A stretch of 64,000 nt of DNA from an uncultured Gemmatimonadales bacterium (lineage in GTDB: Bacteria; Gemmatimonadota; Gemmatimonadetes; Gemmatimonadales; GWC2-71-9): NCBI GenBank assembly GCA_963730185.1, contig CAVSQW010000012.1, positions 370,978-434,977 of the forward strand, read 5' to 3'. Below, piece by piece: positions 1-7,050 of the stretch; the stretch's first letter is position 1; each line of letters begins with the position of its first letter. The position numbers were made by a program, and so were the translations under genes. A model generated the notes under the pieces. It ran no database searches, was not told where the DNA came from, and worked only from the letters and a program-made list of their open reading frames with translations.

Positions 1-1254
1 CCGATCCGCCCGCGCGGCCGGCGAGCTGGGCCCCATGCTGGTCCGCATGGCAGCCGGCGCAGGTCGCGAAGGCGGGCCGAACGATCACCCGCGAGGTACC
101 CCACTTCACGGCTCCCACCCCCGACTTGTCCTTTCGATGGCAGGCCGAGCACTTCACCGCTTCGTGCTTTCCGAGCAGTGGAAACCTGGTCTTCTGGTGT
201 CGCTCCAGCGGGAACGTCGACGGGCTGAAGCCGCGCTCGTCGTGGCAGCTGGCACAGTCCACGGGCCGGCCGGTCAGAGTGGCGTTGCCGCCGTGGGCGT
301 CGGCGTGGCAGGCGGTGCAGGTCCCGAACGCGGGACGCTTGTCCTGCTCGGTGGCGAAGCCGCGATGGCAGGCCGAGCAGGCCGTCGCGGCGTGGCGCCC
401 GCGGAGGGGAAACCTGGTAGCCGAGTGGTTGAAGCCTCCCCTCGCGATCTGCTTGAACGGGCGAGTGGTCGCGTGGCAGGTGGCGCATTCGGCCCCGAAC
501 TGCCCGTTGTGCGGATCGGCGTGGCAGGCGGCACAGCTGTTGTGCGGCACGGGGCGATACACCGGCACCGGGTGGCCGGCGGCGTCACGCCGAGGCGAGA
601 GGCGGGCTGCCAGGTGGCACTTGTTGCAGGTGACCGTGGCGTGCCGGCCGGTGAGTGGATAGTCGGTGGTGTCGTGCGCGAACCCCGGGGTGACCTTCCA
701 CTTGCCGGTGTCGTGACAGCTCGCGCATTGGCTGCCGAGCGCCCCCCGGTGCGCGTCCTCGTGGCAGCTGGCACAGGCGGTCTCGAGACCGGTCCAATGC
801 GAGGTGCCGTTCGGGGCGAGGGCCGCCGCCGGCGACTTCCGGCTGGCGGCCGTGTGACACTTCTCGCAGGTCAGCGCGGCGTGGCTCTTCTCCAGACGCC
901 AGCCGGTCCGGGCGTGATCGAACCGCTCCGCGCGGCCATCAGGCCACTTGACCAGCCGGAAGTCCACGCCGGCGTGATCCGGGTGGCAGGTGGCGCAGCG
1001 CTCCCCCGGACCGTCGGGCTCCCGTGATAGCCTCGGTTCCGCCCGGCCAACCAGCCGATGTCCTGGTGACAGGCGACGCACCGGGCCTGCATCGCCTCCT
1101 TGCCGCCCGCGTGGCACTTGGTGCACTTGAGGGTGCCCTCGAGCTCCCGATGCACCCGGGCCAGGGGCCCTGGTGAGACCTGCGCCGAAAGCCCCGCCAC
1201 CGGCGGGGCCAGCAACAGCAGCACCAACCCGACCAGTCGGCCGAGTCGCATCAC
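1..1254 (-). CDS. Exported multiheme cytochrome c (>=14 CxxCH), one frameshift near 1005, 3' end runs off the window
   Basis: Signal peptide MMRLGRLVGLVLLLLAPPVAGLSA, then CTKCH and CVACH. After a 1-nt shift in a G run (~1003-1007), manual translation gives CATCH, CEKCH, CASCH, CASCH, CNKCH, CAACH, CATCH, CSACH, CTACH, CASCH, CSACH, CAGCH, with recurring F.H..T.FPL.G.H modules. Confidence 0.92.
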
Positions 1255-2267
1255 CAGAACCAGGTCATTCCCATCGAGATCACGACGCCCACGTGAATCA
1301 GCACCGCCAGCAGCGCGGCCATCGCAAACGGCCGGTGCGCCACGTGCCAGAGGCGGAACACCCGCTGGGTGGCGGTCAGCATCCTGGCTTGCTGCGTCAG
1401 GGCCATCTCTCGGCCCGCCAGCTTCACCACCCGGCGGAGCGCCCCGCGGTCGAGCCGGTCACCTGTCTTCCGCGTCGCGCAGATCCGGCGGAGCGACCGG
1501 GCCGCCCGCCAGCGCGAAAGCTCGTCGGTCGCCATCCGGCGGACGGTCGCGAGCAACCCGAGACCATCACACGGAGAGGGATCGGAGCGGAGCAACGACT
1601 CGACTTGAGCCGCGGGCAGACCGGAAGTGCGCACGACGTCCTCCAGCAGCCCCCGACGTTCCGCCGCGATCTCTTCGGCGGTGAGCTCGAGACCGCTCGC
1701 GCTCCGCGGAATGTGCACGTAGAGATATCGCCCGGCCACGCCGCTCAGGCAGACCACCATCATCGACCAGAACCCCAGACCGATCACACCGTCGAACCGC
1801 CAGCTGGCGTGTACCGCGGCTAGGACCGGAAGGATCAACGCGGCCGCGACGTGGACATCCAGCCACTTGGACATCGCGCCGGTCCATCGGAGCCACCGGA
1901 ACTTCTTTCGAAGGGGGTAGAGCCAGAGAAAGACGAATATGGAAACCGCCAAGATCCCGGCAGTTTGCCCAACGTAGCCCGATGGTCGGAGCCAGACGTG
2001 CAAAGGATCGCGCACCCGCTCCGCGGGCGGCGCCAGGTAGTACGGGGCTCCGAGGACGGTCACGGCAAGCAGCAGGCTCACCGACGCGATGACCGGCGTC
2101 CAGGAAGGGCCCCTGCGGCGAGCGGGAGGGGCCGTCGCGGCCTTCGGCGAGGCCGGGGGCGCCGCCGCGCGCCCCCCAAGGCCTGGCCCCGGATGGAGCG
2201 GCGTCACCGGTCGGCCGAGGGCCGGCTGGCTGGGGCGAACGGTCGAATGCAGCTGCTTCGCGGACAT
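1251..2267 (-). CDS. Integral membrane protein, ferric-reductase/cytochrome b-like
   Basis: Several hydrophobic helices with His pairs WLDVH...AAVHAS and WHVAH...VLIHV; stop overlaps the cytochrome start (GTGATG). Confidence 0.7.
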   Translation of the reverse strand: MSAKQLHSTVRPSQPALGRPVTPLHPGPGLGGRAAAPPASPKAATAPPARRRGPSWTPVIASVSLLLAVTVLGAPYYLAPPAERVRDPLHVWLRPSGYVGQTAGILAVSIFVFLWLYPLRKKFRWLRWTGAMSKWLDVHVAAALILPVLAAVHASWRFDGVIGLGFWSMMVVCLSGVAGRYLYVHIPRSASGLELTAEEIAAERRGLLEDVVRTSGLPAAQVESLLRSDPSPCDGLGLLATVRRMATDELSRWRAARSLRRICATRKTGDRLDRGALRRVVKLAGREMALTQQARMLTATQRVFRLWHVAHRPFAMAALLAVLIHVGVVISMGMTWFW

Positions 2268-2354
2268 GGATTCCCTGGCTTCGAGCTACCCCACTCAAGG
2301 CACAAAGTGTGCGAGATGGAGACGCGCGGTCGTCATCTTGCTTGTACACCGTAA

Positions 2355-2407
2355 GTTGTTCCATGACAACGAGATGAACGACTGTTTTTCGCCTCGTTGT
2401 CATGAAA
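2355..2407. promoter_or_regulatory. Inverted repeats in divergent promoter region
   Basis: catgacaacgag (2362-2373) / ctcgttgtcatg (2393-2404) is a perfect 12-bp inverted repeat; nested gttgt-N6-acaac (2355-2370); locally lower GC. Confidence 0.5.
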
Positions 2408-2465
2408 TGACGTCACGAATCATTACAGTAGGAACGGCCCGTTACCTCTCGGCGGGAATTCGGCC

Positions 2466-3827
2466 ATGCTGATTGACGCGGTGTTCGCCGCCGTACTGCT
2501 CTTCGCCATCACCACTCACCTCCTGGGCCACCGCCGGAAGGAGCGGGCCGCCCGAGAAGCGGGCGTGAAGGTCGGCCTCGCCGGTGACGGGCCGCAGGGG
2601 CAGCACCCGCACATCGAGATCGACGATTGCATCGGCTGCGGCGCCTGCGTCACGGCGTGCCCCGAGGGCGACGTGCTGGCGGTCATCGGCGGCAAGGCCG
2701 GAATGGTCAACGGGCACAAGTGCATCGGTCACGGTCTCTGCGCGGAGGCCTGTCCGGTCGGCGCGATCGAGATCGTGATGGCGCCGCCTTCCATGTCGGC
2801 CGACCTGCCCGCGCTTACGCCGGAGTACGAGACGTCGGTCGAGAACCTCTTCGTCGTCGGCGAGCTGGGCGGGCTGGCACTGATCAAGAACGCGGTGAAT
2901 CAGGGCCGCGACGCGGTCGACACGATTCTCGAGCGGCTTCCCCGACTCCGGCATCGTCCGGACGTCGGCCCGCCGCCGCTCGACCTGGTGGTCGTCGGGG
3001 CTGGTCCGGGCGGCATCTCCGCCTCGCTCCGAGCCCAGGAGCAGGGCCTGAGCTACCTGTGCCTCGAGGCCGAAGACCTGGGCGGCACGGTGGCGAAGTA
3101 CCCCCGCCAGAAGCTGGTGATGACCAGCCCGGTCGAATTCCCGATGTACGGAAAGTTCAAGAAGCTGGAGATCACCAAGGAGAGTCTCTTGGCGCTCTGG
3201 ACCAGAGTGGCCGAGACCACGGGCGGACGGATCCATACCCAGGAGCGGGTCGAGGAGATTCGGCCCGAGGCGACCGGCCGGTTCACCGTGCGCACAGCCA
3301 AAGGCGAGTACCAGACGTTGGCGGTGGTCCTGGCCATCGGCCGCCGGGGCACGCCCCGGAAGCTGGGCGTTCCGGGCGAGGAGCTCCCTCACGTGATGTA
3401 CAGTCTGCTCGACGCCGAGGCCTACACCGGCCGGCGGATCCTGGTCGTGGGCGGCGGCGACAGTGCCGTCGAGGCGGCGATGGGCCTGGCGCACCAGAAG
3501 GGCAACCGGGTGGTCCTCTCCTACCGGAAGGGCGCCTTCAGCAGGCTCAAGGACCGGAACCAGAAGCGCCTCCAGGACGCGCTCAAGGCCCGACAGCTCG
3601 AGGTGGTCTTCGAGTCGGCCCCGGTCGAGATCCGCCCCGGCACCACCGTCCTCGACGTGGCCGGCGCGCGCCGTGAGGTCGCCGCCGACTACGTGTGGGT
3701 CTTCGCGGGCGGCTCGCCCCCCAAGCCGTTCCTCGAGAAGATCGGCATCCGGTTCGGCCGCCTGGAGCTGAGCGACGCCGCCCACGCTGAAGCCGAGGCC
3801 TCGGGCGGGCGGGTCGCGGCCGCCTGA
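2466..3827 (+). CDS. Membrane-anchored 2x[4Fe-4S] ferredoxin fused to FAD/NAD(P)H oxidoreductase (TrxB/YpdA-like)
   Basis: N-terminal TM helix; CIGCGACVTACP and CIGHGLCAEACP; VVVGAGPGG (FAD); VVGGGDSAVE (NAD(P)H). Confidence 0.88.
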   Translation: MLIDAVFAAVLLFAITTHLLGHRRKERAAREAGVKVGLAGDGPQGQHPHIEIDDCIGCGACVTACPEGDVLAVIGGKAGMVNGHKCIGHGLCAEACPVGAIEIVMAPPSMSADLPALTPEYETSVENLFVVGELGGLALIKNAVNQGRDAVDTILERLPRLRHRPDVGPPPLDLVVVGAGPGGISASLRAQEQGLSYLCLEAEDLGGTVAKYPRQKLVMTSPVEFPMYGKFKKLEITKESLLALWTRVAETTGGRIHTQERVEEIRPEATGRFTVRTAKGEYQTLAVVLAIGRRGTPRKLGVPGEELPHVMYSLLDAEAYTGRRILVVGGGDSAVEAAMGLAHQKGNRVVLSYRKGAFSRLKDRNQKRLQDALKARQLEVVFESAPVEIRPGTTVLDVAGARREVAADYVWVFAGGSPPKPFLEKIGIRFGRLELSDAAHAEAEASGGRVAAA

Positions 3828-3846: not shown

Positions 3847-6800
3847 TCAGGGACGCTTGACGGGGTCCGGCACCGGCGGATAGAGGCCGGCGTCCGCCAG
3901 CCGCCGGTAGAACGCCTTCAGGTCCGCCAGGAACCCGTTGACGTCGTCCACCGCTCGGGGCACCTCCCGGCGCACCTGATCCACGGACTGGAGGTCCATC
4001 CGGGTCGGGGGCGCCATCGCCCCGCCGATGTTCCCGGCCACCATCCCGACCTTGAACGGCAGCACCTGTCGGAAGATCGCGAAATCGAACTCGAACGGCT
4101 CGTCGGGGTTCCGGACGCCGAACCGTTGGCGGAGCGAGTCGAGCCGGGTCACGAGCGAGTCGAGGCCGGCCCGGATCGGCCCGGGCACCTTGGTGGAGTC
4201 GGCCAGCTCCTTCTTGACGTCGCGGAGCTGAGTGTTGGCCTGGCGGACCGCGTCGCCGGCGTCCGCGGTGGCGGCCTGGAGCCGCTGGAGCTCCTCCAGG
4301 ATCCGTTGACGACTCTGCCGATCCGCTTCGGTGATCTGGATGTCCGGATCGCCGCGGACGTTCACCGGCTTGACCGCCACCTGGGTCCCGTTCACCACCA
4401 AAGCCACCTGGTAGGTGCCGGGCAGCACCACCGGGCCGGGCGTCCCTGGCTCGCCCCCACCGCCGCCGAACAGCGCGGCCAACCCACCCCCACCACCCCC
4501 ACTCCCCTTCCGGGCCGGTTCGATCGGGTTGCTTTGCAGGTTCCAGACCACCGTGTGGACGCCCGGGCTCAGCTTGTCGGCCACCGCCTTGCCCTTGATC
4601 GTCCGCACCTCCGCCCCGGAAGCGTCCCGGACCACCAGCCGGAGACTGTCCGCCTTGGACTTCAACGAATAGGCGATCACCGAGCCGACGGGAGGGTTCT
4701 CCCCGAGCCACTGCATGTCGCCCTCGAACACCCGCTCGCGGTCCTGGGCCGGTGACCGATAGACCGCGGCGGGCACGTCGAACAGGAAGGCGCCGGTGGC
4801 GGCCCCGGCGGCGGCGTACTGCTGGATCGGCGCCAGGTCGTCGAGGATCCAAAGCCCCCGCCCGTGGGTGGCCAGGATCATCGCGTTGTCGCGCGGGTGG
4901 AGCGTGATTTCGTAGACCGGCACGGTCGGGAGGTTGGCCCGAAGCCGGCCCCAGCTGGCCCCGCGGTTGGTGGTGACGTACACGCCGGTCTCGGTCCCGA
5001 GGTAGAGCACGTCGGGATTCTTGAGGTCCTCGGTGATGGTCCGCGCCACCTCCCCTTTCGGCAGGTTGGTCGCGAGCGAGGTCCAGGTGGTGCCGTAGTC
5101 CGGGCTCTGGTAGACGTAGGTGCCGTAGTCGCCCATCCGATGGCCGTCGAAGGTCGCGTACACGGTACCCTCGGCGAACTTCGAGGGCTCGACCTTGGAG
5201 ACGTAGGCCCATTTCGGAACCCCGGCAATCTTCGCCGTCACGTTGGCCCAGGTGGCCCCGCCGTCCCGGGAGACGTTGAGCTGCCCGTCGTCCGACCCCG
5301 TGTAATAGAGCCCGGCCTTGAGCTTCGACTCCGCGATCGTGAACAGGGTGGCGTAGGTCGAGACGCCGTCGTTCTTGGCGATCTTGATGTCCTTACCCTG
5401 CACGCCCATGATCTGGAGCGTGTCGCGGTCCACGCCGGTGGTCAGGTCGGGGCTGATCGCCGCCCAGCTCATGCCCCGGTCGGTCGACTTGAAGAGCTGG
5501 TTGGCGCCCACGTAGATCGTGCTCGGGTCGTGGGGCGAGAGCATCATCGGCGTGTCCCAGTTCCAGCGGTACGGCGCCTCGCCGTCGGCCGGCTCCGGGC
5601 GGATGCTCTGCCGCTCGTTCGTGACCCGGTCGATCCGGTTCATGAAGCCTTCCTGCGACTCGGCGTAGATGATCCGGTGGTTGGTCGGATCGATCAGGCC
5701 GACGAACCCGTCGCCGCCGTTCACCACGAACCACGCGTCGTTCCCGATCCCGTCGGCGGAGCGAACCTGGCTGGGCCCGCACCAGGCGTCGTTGTCCTGG
5801 AGCCCCCCACAGAGGTTGTAGGGCTCCTGCAGGTCGAAGCCGACGTGATAGAACTGCCCGACCGGCAGGTTCGGGAGCCACATCCACTTCTTGGCCTTGT
5901 CCCAGGTGATGCCGACGCCACCGTCGCCGCCGATCATCATGTGGTCGGGGTTGTTCGGGTCGATCCACATCGCGTGGAGGTCGACGTGGATCTTCTCGGC
6001 CCCGTCGAACCGGAACGTCTTGCCTCCATCGTCGGAGATCCCGAGCGGGGTCTGGGGCTGATAGACGCGGAGGTCGTTCTCGGGATCGACCCGGACGACC
6101 CCGAAGTACATCGGCCGCGAATTGGAGGAGCCCATCTTCCGCCAGGACATCCCGGCGTCGTCGGAGCGGTAGTAGCCGCCCTCCTTCTCGTGCTCGACCC
6201 GGGCGTAGATCACGCTCGGATTCTTGCGCCAGATGTCGAGCCCAATCCGGCCCATGGCGCCTTTCGGGAGCCCCTTTTCGAGCCGGGTCCAGGTCCGGCC
6301 GGCGTCGGCGGTCTTGTAGATCCCGCTCGCGGCGCCGCCGCCGTTCATGCCCCAGGTGGTTCGCCGCCGCTGGTAGACCGCCGCATAAAGCACCTTGTCG
6401 TTCATCGGGTCCATCACCAGCTCGGTCCCGCCGGCGTCGGGTCCGCCATCGAGCACCCGGGCCCAGGTGAGCCCGCCGTCCGTGGTTTTGTAGACGCCCC
6501 TGTCGCCGCCCGACCTCCAGAGATCGCCCAAGGCCGCGACGTAGACCACGTCGTGGTCGATCGGGTCGACCACGATCCGGGCCACCTGCTTCGAGTCCCG
6601 GAGCCCCATGTTCTTCCAGCTGAGCCCGCCGTCGGTCGACTTGTAGACCCCGTCGCCCCAGCTCGAGCTCTGCCGGTTGTTGTTCTCGCCGGTCCCGACC
6701 CAGACCAGGTTCGGATCGTTCTGTGCGATGGTCACCGTGCCGATCGAGGCCATCCCGGCCGAGTCGAACACGGAGGCGAAGGTGACCCCGCCGTTGGTGG

Positions 6801-7050
6801 TCTTCCAGAGGCCGCCGGTGGCAGCCGCGACGTAGAAGATCCGCGGATCTCGGTCCAGGACCGCGAAATCGTCGATCCGGCCGCTCATGATCGACGGGCC
6901 GACGTCGCGGAAATGGAGCCGGTCGAAGGGCCCACCCTTCCACTCGGCGGTGTCGGCCGGCGGAGCCGGGCGGGAGGGCGCCTGAGCGGCGGCCATCACG
7001 GGAACGGTCAGTACGGCACCCAGGAGCACCGGGAGGGAAAGCGTGCGCAC
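3847..7050 (-). CDS. Exported BNR/Asp-box repeat (VPS10/sortilin-like) beta-propeller protein, putative glycosyl hydrolase
   Basis: Signal peptide; many S/T-x-D-x-G-x-T/S-W repeats (STDGGLSW, TTDGGLTW, SDDAGMSW, SRDGGATW); 1067 aa. Confidence 0.85.
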   Translation of the reverse strand: MRTLSLPVLLGAVLTVPVMAAAQAPSRPAPPADTAEWKGGPFDRLHFRDVGPSIMSGRIDDFAVLDRDPRIFYVAAATGGLWKTTNGGVTFASVFDSAGMASIGTVTIAQNDPNLVWVGTGENNNRQSSSWGDGVYKSTDGGLSWKNMGLRDSKQVARIVVDPIDHDVVYVAALGDLWRSGGDRGVYKTTDGGLTWARVLDGGPDAGGTELVMDPMNDKVLYAAVYQRRRTTWGMNGGGAASGIYKTADAGRTWTRLEKGLPKGAMGRIGLDIWRKNPSVIYARVEHEKEGGYYRSDDAGMSWRKMGSSNSRPMYFGVVRVDPENDLRVYQPQTPLGISDDGGKTFRFDGAEKIHVDLHAMWIDPNNPDHMMIGGDGGVGITWDKAKKWMWLPNLPVGQFYHVGFDLQEPYNLCGGLQDNDAWCGPSQVRSADGIGNDAWFVVNGGDGFVGLIDPTNHRIIYAESQEGFMNRIDRVTNERQSIRPEPADGEAPYRWNWDTPMMLSPHDPSTIYVGANQLFKSTDRGMSWAAISPDLTTGVDRDTLQIMGVQGKDIKIAKNDGVSTYATLFTIAESKLKAGLYYTGSDDGQLNVSRDGGATWANVTAKIAGVPKWAYVSKVEPSKFAEGTVYATFDGHRMGDYGTYVYQSPDYGTTWTSLATNLPKGEVARTITEDLKNPDVLYLGTETGVYVTTNRGASWGRLRANLPTVPVYEITLHPRDNAMILATHGRGLWILDDLAPIQQYAAAGAATGAFLFDVPAAVYRSPAQDRERVFEGDMQWLGENPPVGSVIAYSLKSKADSLRLVVRDASGAEVRTIKGKAVADKLSPGVHTVVWNLQSNPIEPARKGSGGGGGGLAALFGGGGGEPGTPGPVVLPGTYQVALVVNGTQVAVKPVNVRGDPDIQITEADRQSRQRILEELQRLQAATADAGDAVRQANTQLRDVKKELADSTKVPGPIRAGLDSLVTRLDSLRQRFGVRNPDEPFEFDFAIFRQVLPFKVGMVAGNIGGAMAPPTRMDLQSVDQVRREVPRAVDDVNGFLADLKAFYRRLADAGLYPPVPDPVKRP

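Follow-up and report, generated by a model that had tools for sequence, protein, structure and literature searches.

The window, as the whole 64,000-nucleotide stretch of DNA analyzed here is called (G000:C12:370978-434977), comes from an uncultured Gemmatimonadales bacterium whose genome is 82% complete, and its left edge lies within a gene cluster for a putative electron conduit through the cell envelope; the neighbouring sequence to the left of the window was also read. The original prediction for this DNA placed three genes here, a membrane-anchored NAD(P)H flavoprotein-ferredoxin divergent from a cytochrome b-like membrane protein and an exported multiheme cytochrome, and all three are present. 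The cluster is larger than this, as the remainder of the cytochrome gene lies beyond the left edge, and a 37-heme cytochrome gene, a barrel-like gene and a zinc-ribbon gene lie 0.8-6.1 kb beyond it, these three all transcribed towards the first, 23-heme cytochrome gene. Across many bacterial phyla, five of the parts are inherited as a set: an Fe-S flavoprotein, a four-histidine membrane protein, two multiheme cytochromes and a probable pore. The features are as follows (positions in the window unless a contig position, C12, is given).

1..1254, minus strand: 5' part of an exported 23-heme cytochrome c (motif count); the gene continues 763 bases past the left edge
1003..1007, plus strand: run of five C, a frame change in the cytochrome gene (comparison with relatives)
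1251..2267, minus strand: PCC3-type inner-membrane protein, 338 amino acids (alignment, model, hydropathy and profile homology)
2466..3827, plus strand: membrane-anchored ferredoxin-flavoprotein, 453 amino acids (Pfam, PDB, Foldseek, invariant columns and motif census)
2628..2753, plus strand: Fe-S ligand motifs C55-C58-C61-C65 and C86-H89-C92-C96 (sequence and orthologue census)
3450..3527, plus strand: GGGDSA...SYR dinucleotide-binding fingerprint (pattern in 55/65 orthologues)
C12:364845-367709, plus strand: 37-heme cytochrome c, 954 amino acids (count of 37 CxxCH)
C12:367706-369346, plus strand: probable outer-membrane barrel, 546 amino acids (profile comparison, terminal Phe)
C12:369250-370200, plus strand: zinc-ribbon gene (homologue in 13/60 loci of the phylum)

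The signature of PCC3's inner-membrane protein is present in the membrane protein, and the cluster is thus of a conduit type that has already been predicted. PCC3 was described computationally by He et al. (2017) as a four-gene cluster with a quinone-linked model, the membrane protein being proposed to bind two b hemes and to exchange electrons with quinone (PMC5566968; here and below, published work is cited from the excerpts that were accessible). By its sequence features, the present cluster is filed as PCC3-type, in a non-proteobacterial branch. PCC3 membrane proteins are of about 300 residues, with five helices, SGxxG in helix 4 and WX3HX13H in helices 3 and 5, and the window protein shows the same plan: its model (pLDDT 88.6) has five membrane helices, which are also seen by hydropathy, and its motifs are W135-H139-x13-H153, S175GxxG179 and W307-H311-x13-H325. 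A helical insert, some 120 residues long, is also part of the model and by the positive-inside rule is predicted to lie on the cytoplasmic side. The transmembrane histidines to which the original prediction assigned b hemes proved to be conserved, H139, H153, H311 and H325 at 100, 99, 100 and 100%, respectively, in a hand-picked alignment of 107 sequences (the query with 90 representatives of nearly full length and 16 close matches); both WX3HX13H motifs also occur in 90 of 105 unselected representatives of 265-380 residues. A profile of 18 membrane proteins from clusters of the Gallionellaceae family (the family of G302, Sideroxydans sp.; 151 genomes) matches the window protein with an E value of 7.6e-18, and most of these clusters have the published PCC3 heme ranges (PMC9900912). 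In a tree of 42 membrane proteins, for which five candidates were skipped by a motif filter, the proteobacterial proteins and one from a planctomycete form one clade (100/100); the window protein lies in the sister clade, with those of Bacteroidota, Acidobacteriota and others. The four conserved histidines point to the binding of two b hemes.

General searches with the membrane protein returned little: no Pfam family matches it in a Pfam scan, weak b561 and ferric-reductase matches appear in 24 and 23 of the 107 members (ferric-reductase: E <=0.1, best 2.8e-5), and a Foldseek search with its model gave no match at E <=0.001. It has the two transmembrane bis-His HX13H pairs of the FRD proteins (NOX, MsrQ and STEAP); membership of that group was rejected, as it has five helices rather than six and no PF01794 match. 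Although it is not classed as an FRD protein, we propose by analogy that it may work like one.

In the flavoprotein, a single N-terminal hydrophobic helix (residues 2-20) is followed by a ferredoxin dicluster domain and then by the FAD/NAD(P) domain Pyr_redox_3. Its best PDB match is Bdr/YpdA (E 1.4e-21), and Foldseek also supports a YpdA/TrxR-type fold. The ferredoxin domain holds two cluster motifs, as had been expected for a 2x[4Fe-4S] protein, except that the ligands are seven Cys and one His. Of 65 orthologues from across the phyla, 64 keep this His (H89), but only 32 keep C58, the second Cys of motif 1, which is Ser or Thr in 31. His-ligated Fe-S clusters serve as the surface exit in hydrogenases. 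The dinucleotide-binding fingerprint, of which G329-A334, Y353 and R354 are invariant in 55 aligned flavoproteins, is presumably of the NADPH type. Furthermore, the protein is circularly permuted: the GELGG segment, which comes last in enzymes of the TrxR fold, precedes the first Rossmann motif in 59/65 orthologues, and alignment to an unpermuted relative of 805 residues runs in two swapped pieces. Past the ferredoxin domain, neither the window protein nor any of the 65 orthologues has a redox CxxC.

Assignment of the flavoprotein as a thioredoxin reductase (TIGR01292, 76 bits against a cut-off of 343) was rejected because this CxxC is missing from the flavin part, and assignment as a bacillithiol disulfide reductase of the Bdr/YpdA type on its score (TIGR04018, 149.4 against 339.9 bits). 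Judged by its sequence, it is a putative TrxR-type ferredoxin-NADP+ reductase, with the TrxR fold, an NADP(H) fingerprint and no CxxC. The fold, the FAD/NADP(H) motifs and the absence of CxxC are common to Bdr/YpdA and the TrxR-type ferredoxin-NADP+ reductases; unlike these, the window flavoprotein is permuted and carries a ferredoxin domain and a membrane anchor in the same chain. In one subgroup (L026, L042, L047, L055 and L061), the anchor and the ferredoxin domain of the flavoprotein are separated by a zinc-ribbon-like Cys pattern, which resembles the separate zinc-ribbon gene of the window cluster.

Read to its end, the gene of the first cytochrome (G000:C12:370214-372231) encodes a signal peptide and 23 CxxCH motifs at about 29 residues per heme, and its start (1254/1250) overlaps the stop of the membrane gene. 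At least 14 motifs had been counted in the window; there are 14, split over two frames, two in the frame of the signal peptide and 12 after a frameshift, and the leftward extension then recommended gives the total of 23. At the site of the frameshift, a contig that is about 96% alike has one extra C behind 1002 and two relatives of the same genus have one extra base; 23 hemes stand in one frame in 39 of the 60 phylum loci (fetched from 64 other positive genomes). The frameshift is probably an assembly error, and a true pseudogene is less likely. The protein is 27-31% identical over 450-620 residues to its Gallionellaceae-family counterparts and agrees with the periplasmic cytochrome of PCC3, which stands right behind the membrane gene and has about 21-24 hemes at 22-39 residues per heme.

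The second cytochrome of PCC3 is a many-heme repeat protein rich in Thr, Ser, Ala and Gly, with a median of 34 hemes, and the 37-heme protein (25.8 residues per heme, 16.8% Thr) corresponds to it. It has a signal peptide, and no lipobox was seen by eye. By BLAST, it is closer to proteobacterial periplasmic than to extracellular cytochromes (341 versus 206 bits in one example), and both cytochromes of the cluster are built from similar repeats. Across loci, the second cytochrome has anything from about 10 to 80 hemes, and 80, 68, 67 and 58 CxxCH were counted in L126, L135, L087 and L080, respectively; L126, a record titled Bacteroidota, may be misbinned or transferred, as its membrane protein is of the proteobacterial type.

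The leftward search for a porin, also recommended in the original prediction, brought out the barrel-like gene of 546 residues. It matches the PCC3 porins of the Gallionellaceae family weakly by profile (P 58%, E 1e-4), has no Pfam family and meets Atlas barrel families only at 0.86. A homologue is found in 47/60 phylum loci, and a barrel-like gene stands behind the second cytochrome in most of the Gallionellaceae-family loci examined. A barrel gene is part of PCC3; the barrel-like protein here is shorter than those of PCC3 (546 versus 630-860 residues) and barely alignable with them, and the second cytochrome and barrel are inverted in the genus of the window.

The association of the flavoprotein with the membrane protein is far beyond chance. 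In a set of 301 genomes from the phylum of the window, the membrane protein was found in 65, the flavoprotein in 68 and both in 64; the membrane protein occurs alone in one (a weak match) and the flavoprotein alone in four. The flavoprotein gene lies within 10 kb of the membrane gene in 59/60 phylum loci, the single miss being at a contig end, and takes four arrangements: divergent, upstream in line, between the membrane gene and the cytochrome, or behind the barrel gene. A cross-phylum sample was obtained by a degenerate motif scan of GTDB genomes, which gave at least 119 loci, 80 with flanks that were analyzed and 39 with too little DNA. Among the loci listed, all 80 are homologues and 68 have the flavoprotein, as do 39 of the 43 listed loci of the full 20 kb. 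They include members of Bacteroidota, Ignavibacteria, Calditrichota, Zixibacteria, Nitrospirota, Planctomycetota, Acidobacteriota and Pseudomonadota, the last including Sideroxydans sp., Gallionella sp., Thiodiazotropha and Bradyrhizobium. On a plasmid of Emticicia oligotrophica (L063:8818-20616, NC_018749.1), ccsA, the membrane protein, an NAD(P)-binding protein, two cytochromes with 23 and 40 hemes and a barrel-like gene stand in one row; this five-gene cluster with its own heme-attachment gene ccsA, on a 100-kb plasmid of a Bacteroidota isolate, is a ready experimental model.

The flavoprotein also accompanies the membrane protein in 70 of the 72 Gallionellaceae-family genomes that have the latter, and 68 of its 75 copies there lie within 10 kb of a membrane gene, 67 of them head to head as in the window. 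For these counts, 95 of 122 membrane rows were kept (27 weaker ones dropped) and 75 of 77 flavoprotein rows (two partial ones dropped). The flavoproteins are 41-45% identical to that of the window. All of these figures measure conservation rather than a level of significance, since related genomes are not independent. A chance neighbourhood of the two genes was rejected on the co-occurrence counts, and the co-occurrence of the families that the original prediction asked about is borne out (64/65 in the phylum, 68/80 among the listed cross-phylum loci and 70/72 in the Gallionellaceae family). Fusions of the families were sought, in a weak search, among longer proteins and long representatives, and no true fusion was found, as three matches and the long representatives read as frameshift or opposite-strand read-throughs. 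When the membrane protein was co-folded with the flavoprotein, heme and Fe-S included, the score was 0.01, which was used neither way. Among the sequencing runs listed, none was of RNA, and those of DNA had small shares only.

As the flavoprotein is conserved with the membrane protein in the Gallionellaceae family too, canonical PCC3 has an overlooked fifth gene. PCC3 as published comprises four genes with a quinone model, and the clusters of the window and the Gallionellaceae family add to these the conserved Fe-S flavoprotein. In the accessible excerpts of the papers on Sideroxydans and Gallionellaceae, including PMC9900912, PMC8788666 and 10.1101/2025.02.27.639646, four PCC3 genes are given and the flavoprotein is unmentioned. 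No report that ties PCC3 to an NAD(P)H flavoprotein was found in the open literature, subscription journals lying mostly outside the search. The nearest, in its excerpts, notes a ferredoxin-NADP+ reductase gene near 7/11 porin-cytochrome clusters of a 'large decaheme' group (PMC13264449), which may or may not overlap the present family. The name PCC3 is applied to something else in the excerpts of PMC13013709.

In one lineage the flavoprotein has been replaced. At L100, one of four full-length listed loci without it, an unrelated FAD_binding_6/NAD_binding_1/Fer2 reductase lies directly upstream of the membrane gene; this substitute is of the FAD/NAD(P)H/[2Fe-2S] type and has a hydrophobic N-terminus. 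In the Acidobacteriota order of G305, the usual flavoprotein was found in none of 151 genomes and the membrane protein in 23. The substitute is directly upstream of the membrane gene in 20/20 fetched loci of that order, a close orthologue of it (E <=5.1e-79) occurs in all 23 genomes with the membrane protein and, three weaker matches apart, in none of the other 128, and it was near none of the other loci examined outside the order.

A third architecture was found with distant paralogues of the membrane protein, which adjoin flavoproteins of 805 and 837 residues at both loci concerned (L246:3785-8842 and L247:4233-10150). They are the two partial flavoprotein rows dropped from the Gallionellaceae-family counts. 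The 805-residue protein, the one scanned, has flavoprotein, cNMP and Fe-S domains, and a 9-heme cytochrome with an FHA domain lies on the other side of the five-helix paralogue, which has two WX3HX13H motifs. That an NAD(P)H input enzyme carries cNMP-binding domains suggests an electron gate under the control of a signal. The protein sizes match rows of Supplementary Table 6 of He et al. (805 residues, 308 residues and 9 hemes), in which an unnamed 'other redox protein' stands beside related membrane proteins (PMC5566968). These porin-less clusters and PCC4 share with the window a membrane protein with two HX13H pairs, a multiheme cytochrome and a redox protein, and the flavoprotein domain at loci of these sizes is 36% identical to that of the window. 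However, their redox protein is unpermuted, with two cNMP-binding domains and no N-terminal anchor, and the clusters have no giant cytochromes. The accessible text of He et al. gives the 'other redox protein' no NAD(P)H role (PMC5566968). In all three architectures, the neighbour of this membrane family is thus an NAD(P)H/FAD/Fe-S enzyme.

The predicted anatomy of an NAD(P)H flavoprotein, a di-heme b-like membrane protein and a multiheme wire thus gains from the co-occurrence, the conserved histidines, the extra hemes, the porin-like gene and the replacement of the reductase, but it is not unprecedented. The claim that the cluster matches neither Mtr nor Mto stands; the precedent is the PCC3 prediction. 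With MtrCAB/MtoAB and the Geobacter conduits the cluster would share the logic of a periplasmic cytochrome, a barrel and an outer cytochrome. In contrast to MtrCAB/MtoAB, its cytochromes have 23 and 37 hemes and are not decaheme, and DmsE and OmcA/MtrC scores are far below the cut-off (TIGR03508, 53 versus 192 bits; TIGR03507, 22 versus 209), so that Mtr/Mto membership was rejected. No CymA-type quinol dehydrogenase was seen in the window cluster. The proposed likeness is to MsrQ with Fre, bacterial NOX and STEAP, in which a cytoplasmic NAD(P)H flavoenzyme passes electrons to a heme-b membrane protein and on to the far side. Fre feeds NADH electrons to MsrQ, for which ubiquinone is unable to act as donor, according to the excerpts of PMC12525009. 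The likeness has limits: FRD proteins have six helices and the window protein five; MsrQ contains a single heme besides FMN; here, multiheme c cytochromes would take up the electrons, and the enzyme that usually donates them is of the TrxR fold rather than the FNR fold.

We favour, with moderate confidence, a split two-component conduit like NOX or MsrQ, which would carry electrons from cytoplasmic NAD(P)H to the outside across both membranes and would not depend on the quinone pool for them. NADPH, as the YpdA/FNR fold and the GGGDSA/SYR fingerprint suggest, would pass a hydride to FAD, which would release single electrons through the two Fe-S clusters, the His-ligated one being a candidate exit. 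From there, presumably by direct contact of the two proteins, electrons would reach the two b hemes of the five-helix protein, the predicted ligands of which are conserved, and would cross the inner membrane. They would then run through the 23-heme cytochrome in the periplasm to the 37-heme cytochrome in or beyond the barrel, and to the outside. Outward flow from NAD(P)H is downhill and spends, rather than builds, membrane potential. The likely purpose would thus be the reduction of an external acceptor, candidates being ferric complexes, humics and metal oxides, or the disposal of surplus reductant, and not energy conservation. In excerpts of PMC8788666, both PCC3 clusters of Sideroxydans ES-1 go down on Fe(II).

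Several observations weigh against this NAD(P)H-fed path, and some of them speak for the quinone link of He et al., in which the membrane protein would be a quinone-reactive cytochrome b and the flavoprotein, co-regulated with it, would supply or balance the pool as an NAD(P)H:quinone or ferredoxin reductase, with contact between them unneeded. Gene linkage is compatible with quinone as an intermediate. The flavoprotein is missing within 10 kb of 27 of the 95 Gallionellaceae-family membrane copies (68/95 have it), although many of these are second copies from genomes with a flavoprotein at another place; the cluster also occurs at L085, which lies on a single chromosome of 7.0 Mb, and genome-wide only a partial, 147-bit YpdA-like match was found there, and L064 has only a flavoprotein fragment beside its cluster. 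The closest heme-protein folds, those of CybB, FdnI and hydrogenase cytochrome b, are quinone-reactive, and these matches are weak: those to the di-heme cytochromes b (CybB, Z 9.6; FdnI, Z 8.4; STEAP4, Z 8.0) are at the level of helical-bundle noise, which also tells against the NOX-like reading. MsrQ also carries ubiquinone (excerpts of PMC12525009). Furthermore, the replacement in Acidobacteriota counts as one event and not 23, since the membrane proteins concerned form one clade (96/84), and the 23-heme gene is frameshifted as assembled in this genome. A quinone-fed protein, however, needs no reductase of its own, yet one is found in nearly every genome that has the membrane protein; the flavoprotein, where lost, is replaced by an unrelated reductase, and both reductases end in one-electron Fe-S carriers. 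The quinone link is on balance rather unlikely.

The same five parts could also run inwards, from an external donor such as Fe(II) minerals, electrodes or partner cells through the wire to NADP+ via the FNR-like flavoprotein, and the fold of the latter is indeed that of the TrxR-type ferredoxin-NADP+ reductases. Inward transfer must climb to about -0.32 V and also against the membrane potential, for which common Fe(II) donors are insufficient, and this counts against it. The cluster is also widespread in Bacteroidota, Gemmatimonadota and Acidobacteriota, phyla known mainly as heterotrophs. It is common in iron-oxidizing Gallionellaceae (excerpts of PMC9900912), and one PCC3 membrane gene is higher in iron-oxidizing cells of Sideroxydans CL21 (excerpts of 10.1101/2025.02.27.639646), both of which favour inward flow, the CL21 gene being also a further point against the outward path, whereas the fall of the ES-1 genes on Fe(II) tells against inward flow, a direction that we hold to be improbable. 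There may, on the other hand, be no wire across the envelope: the NAD(P)H-fed membrane protein would load electrons onto the giant cytochromes, which would be a store or redox buffer in the periplasm, or it would make superoxide as NOX does, and the barrel would serve in assembly or secretion. The wide range of heme numbers in the second cytochrome, the similar repeats of both cytochromes, the periplasmic affinity of the 37-heme protein and the weak identity of the barrel suit such a store, and a capacitor role is suggested in excerpts of PMC9900912 and PMC11495043. The regular presence of a barrel-like gene, in 47/60 phylum loci and behind the second cytochrome in most Gallionellaceae-family loci examined, is as in known porin-cytochrome conduits and counts against this reading, which we hold to be improbable as well.

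To our knowledge, those porin-cytochrome conduits of Gram-negative bacteria that have been characterized take their electrons from the quinone pool. With a conduit fed directly by NAD(P)H, extracellular electron transfer would be wired in another way, and the view of the predicted PCC3 conduit would change. We suggest tentatively that PCC3-type clusters in general, which occur in more than 10 phyla including the iron-oxidizing Gallionellaceae, may be hard-wired NADPH-to-exterior circuits rather than quinone-linked iron-oxidation conduits, with a split NADPH oxidase, a cable of 30-100 hemes and interchangeable flavin/Fe-S inputs. If so, PCC3 should not count as a marker of iron oxidation, extracellular electron transfer would extend to aerobic soil and sludge heterotrophs that are not thought electroactive, and the module could couple NADPH metabolism to electrodes. 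It would also account for the giant cytochromes that surveys report without function, and without this flavoprotein context in the excerpts of PMC11495043. The question of PCC3 function gains a simple assay, NAD(P)H-dependent heme reduction, which is feasible in isolates such as Emticicia oligotrophica DSM 17448.

Between the flavoprotein and membrane genes lies one further feature.

2268..2465, no strand: divergent intergenic region, 198 bp (flavoprotein versus membrane gene)

It contains a 20-nucleotide inverted repeat (2359-2378/2388-2407) that is without counterpart in four relatives, and a GGCACAAAxxGTGC element near 2298-2315 that is conserved in most of seven aligned intergenic sequences and is possibly a regulator site. 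A sigma-70 and terminator scan of the 198 bp found nothing.

The genome has other redox clusters. One (G000:C8:324755-338722) encodes cytochromes of 8, 18 and 16 hemes together with a zinc-ribbon paralogue; next to these lies a divergent group that has a 5-heme cytochrome and, judged by motifs, a molybdopterin protein, an Fe-S protein and an NrfD-like membrane protein. A similar trio of 7-8, 17-18 and 14-16 hemes adjoins the PCC3-type cluster in 8/60 relatives (L004, L005, L011, L012, L013, L023, L031 and L039). Another row (G000:C8:448243-455892) has a 5-heme cytochrome, a large molybdopterin/Fe-S-type protein and membrane proteins, and presumably resembles alternative complex III. In the window itself, an exported protein of 1067 residues with repeated TxDGGxTW motifs (3847-7050, minus strand), which we take to be BNR/VPS10-like, is convergent with the flavoprotein gene and shows no sign of belonging to the cluster.

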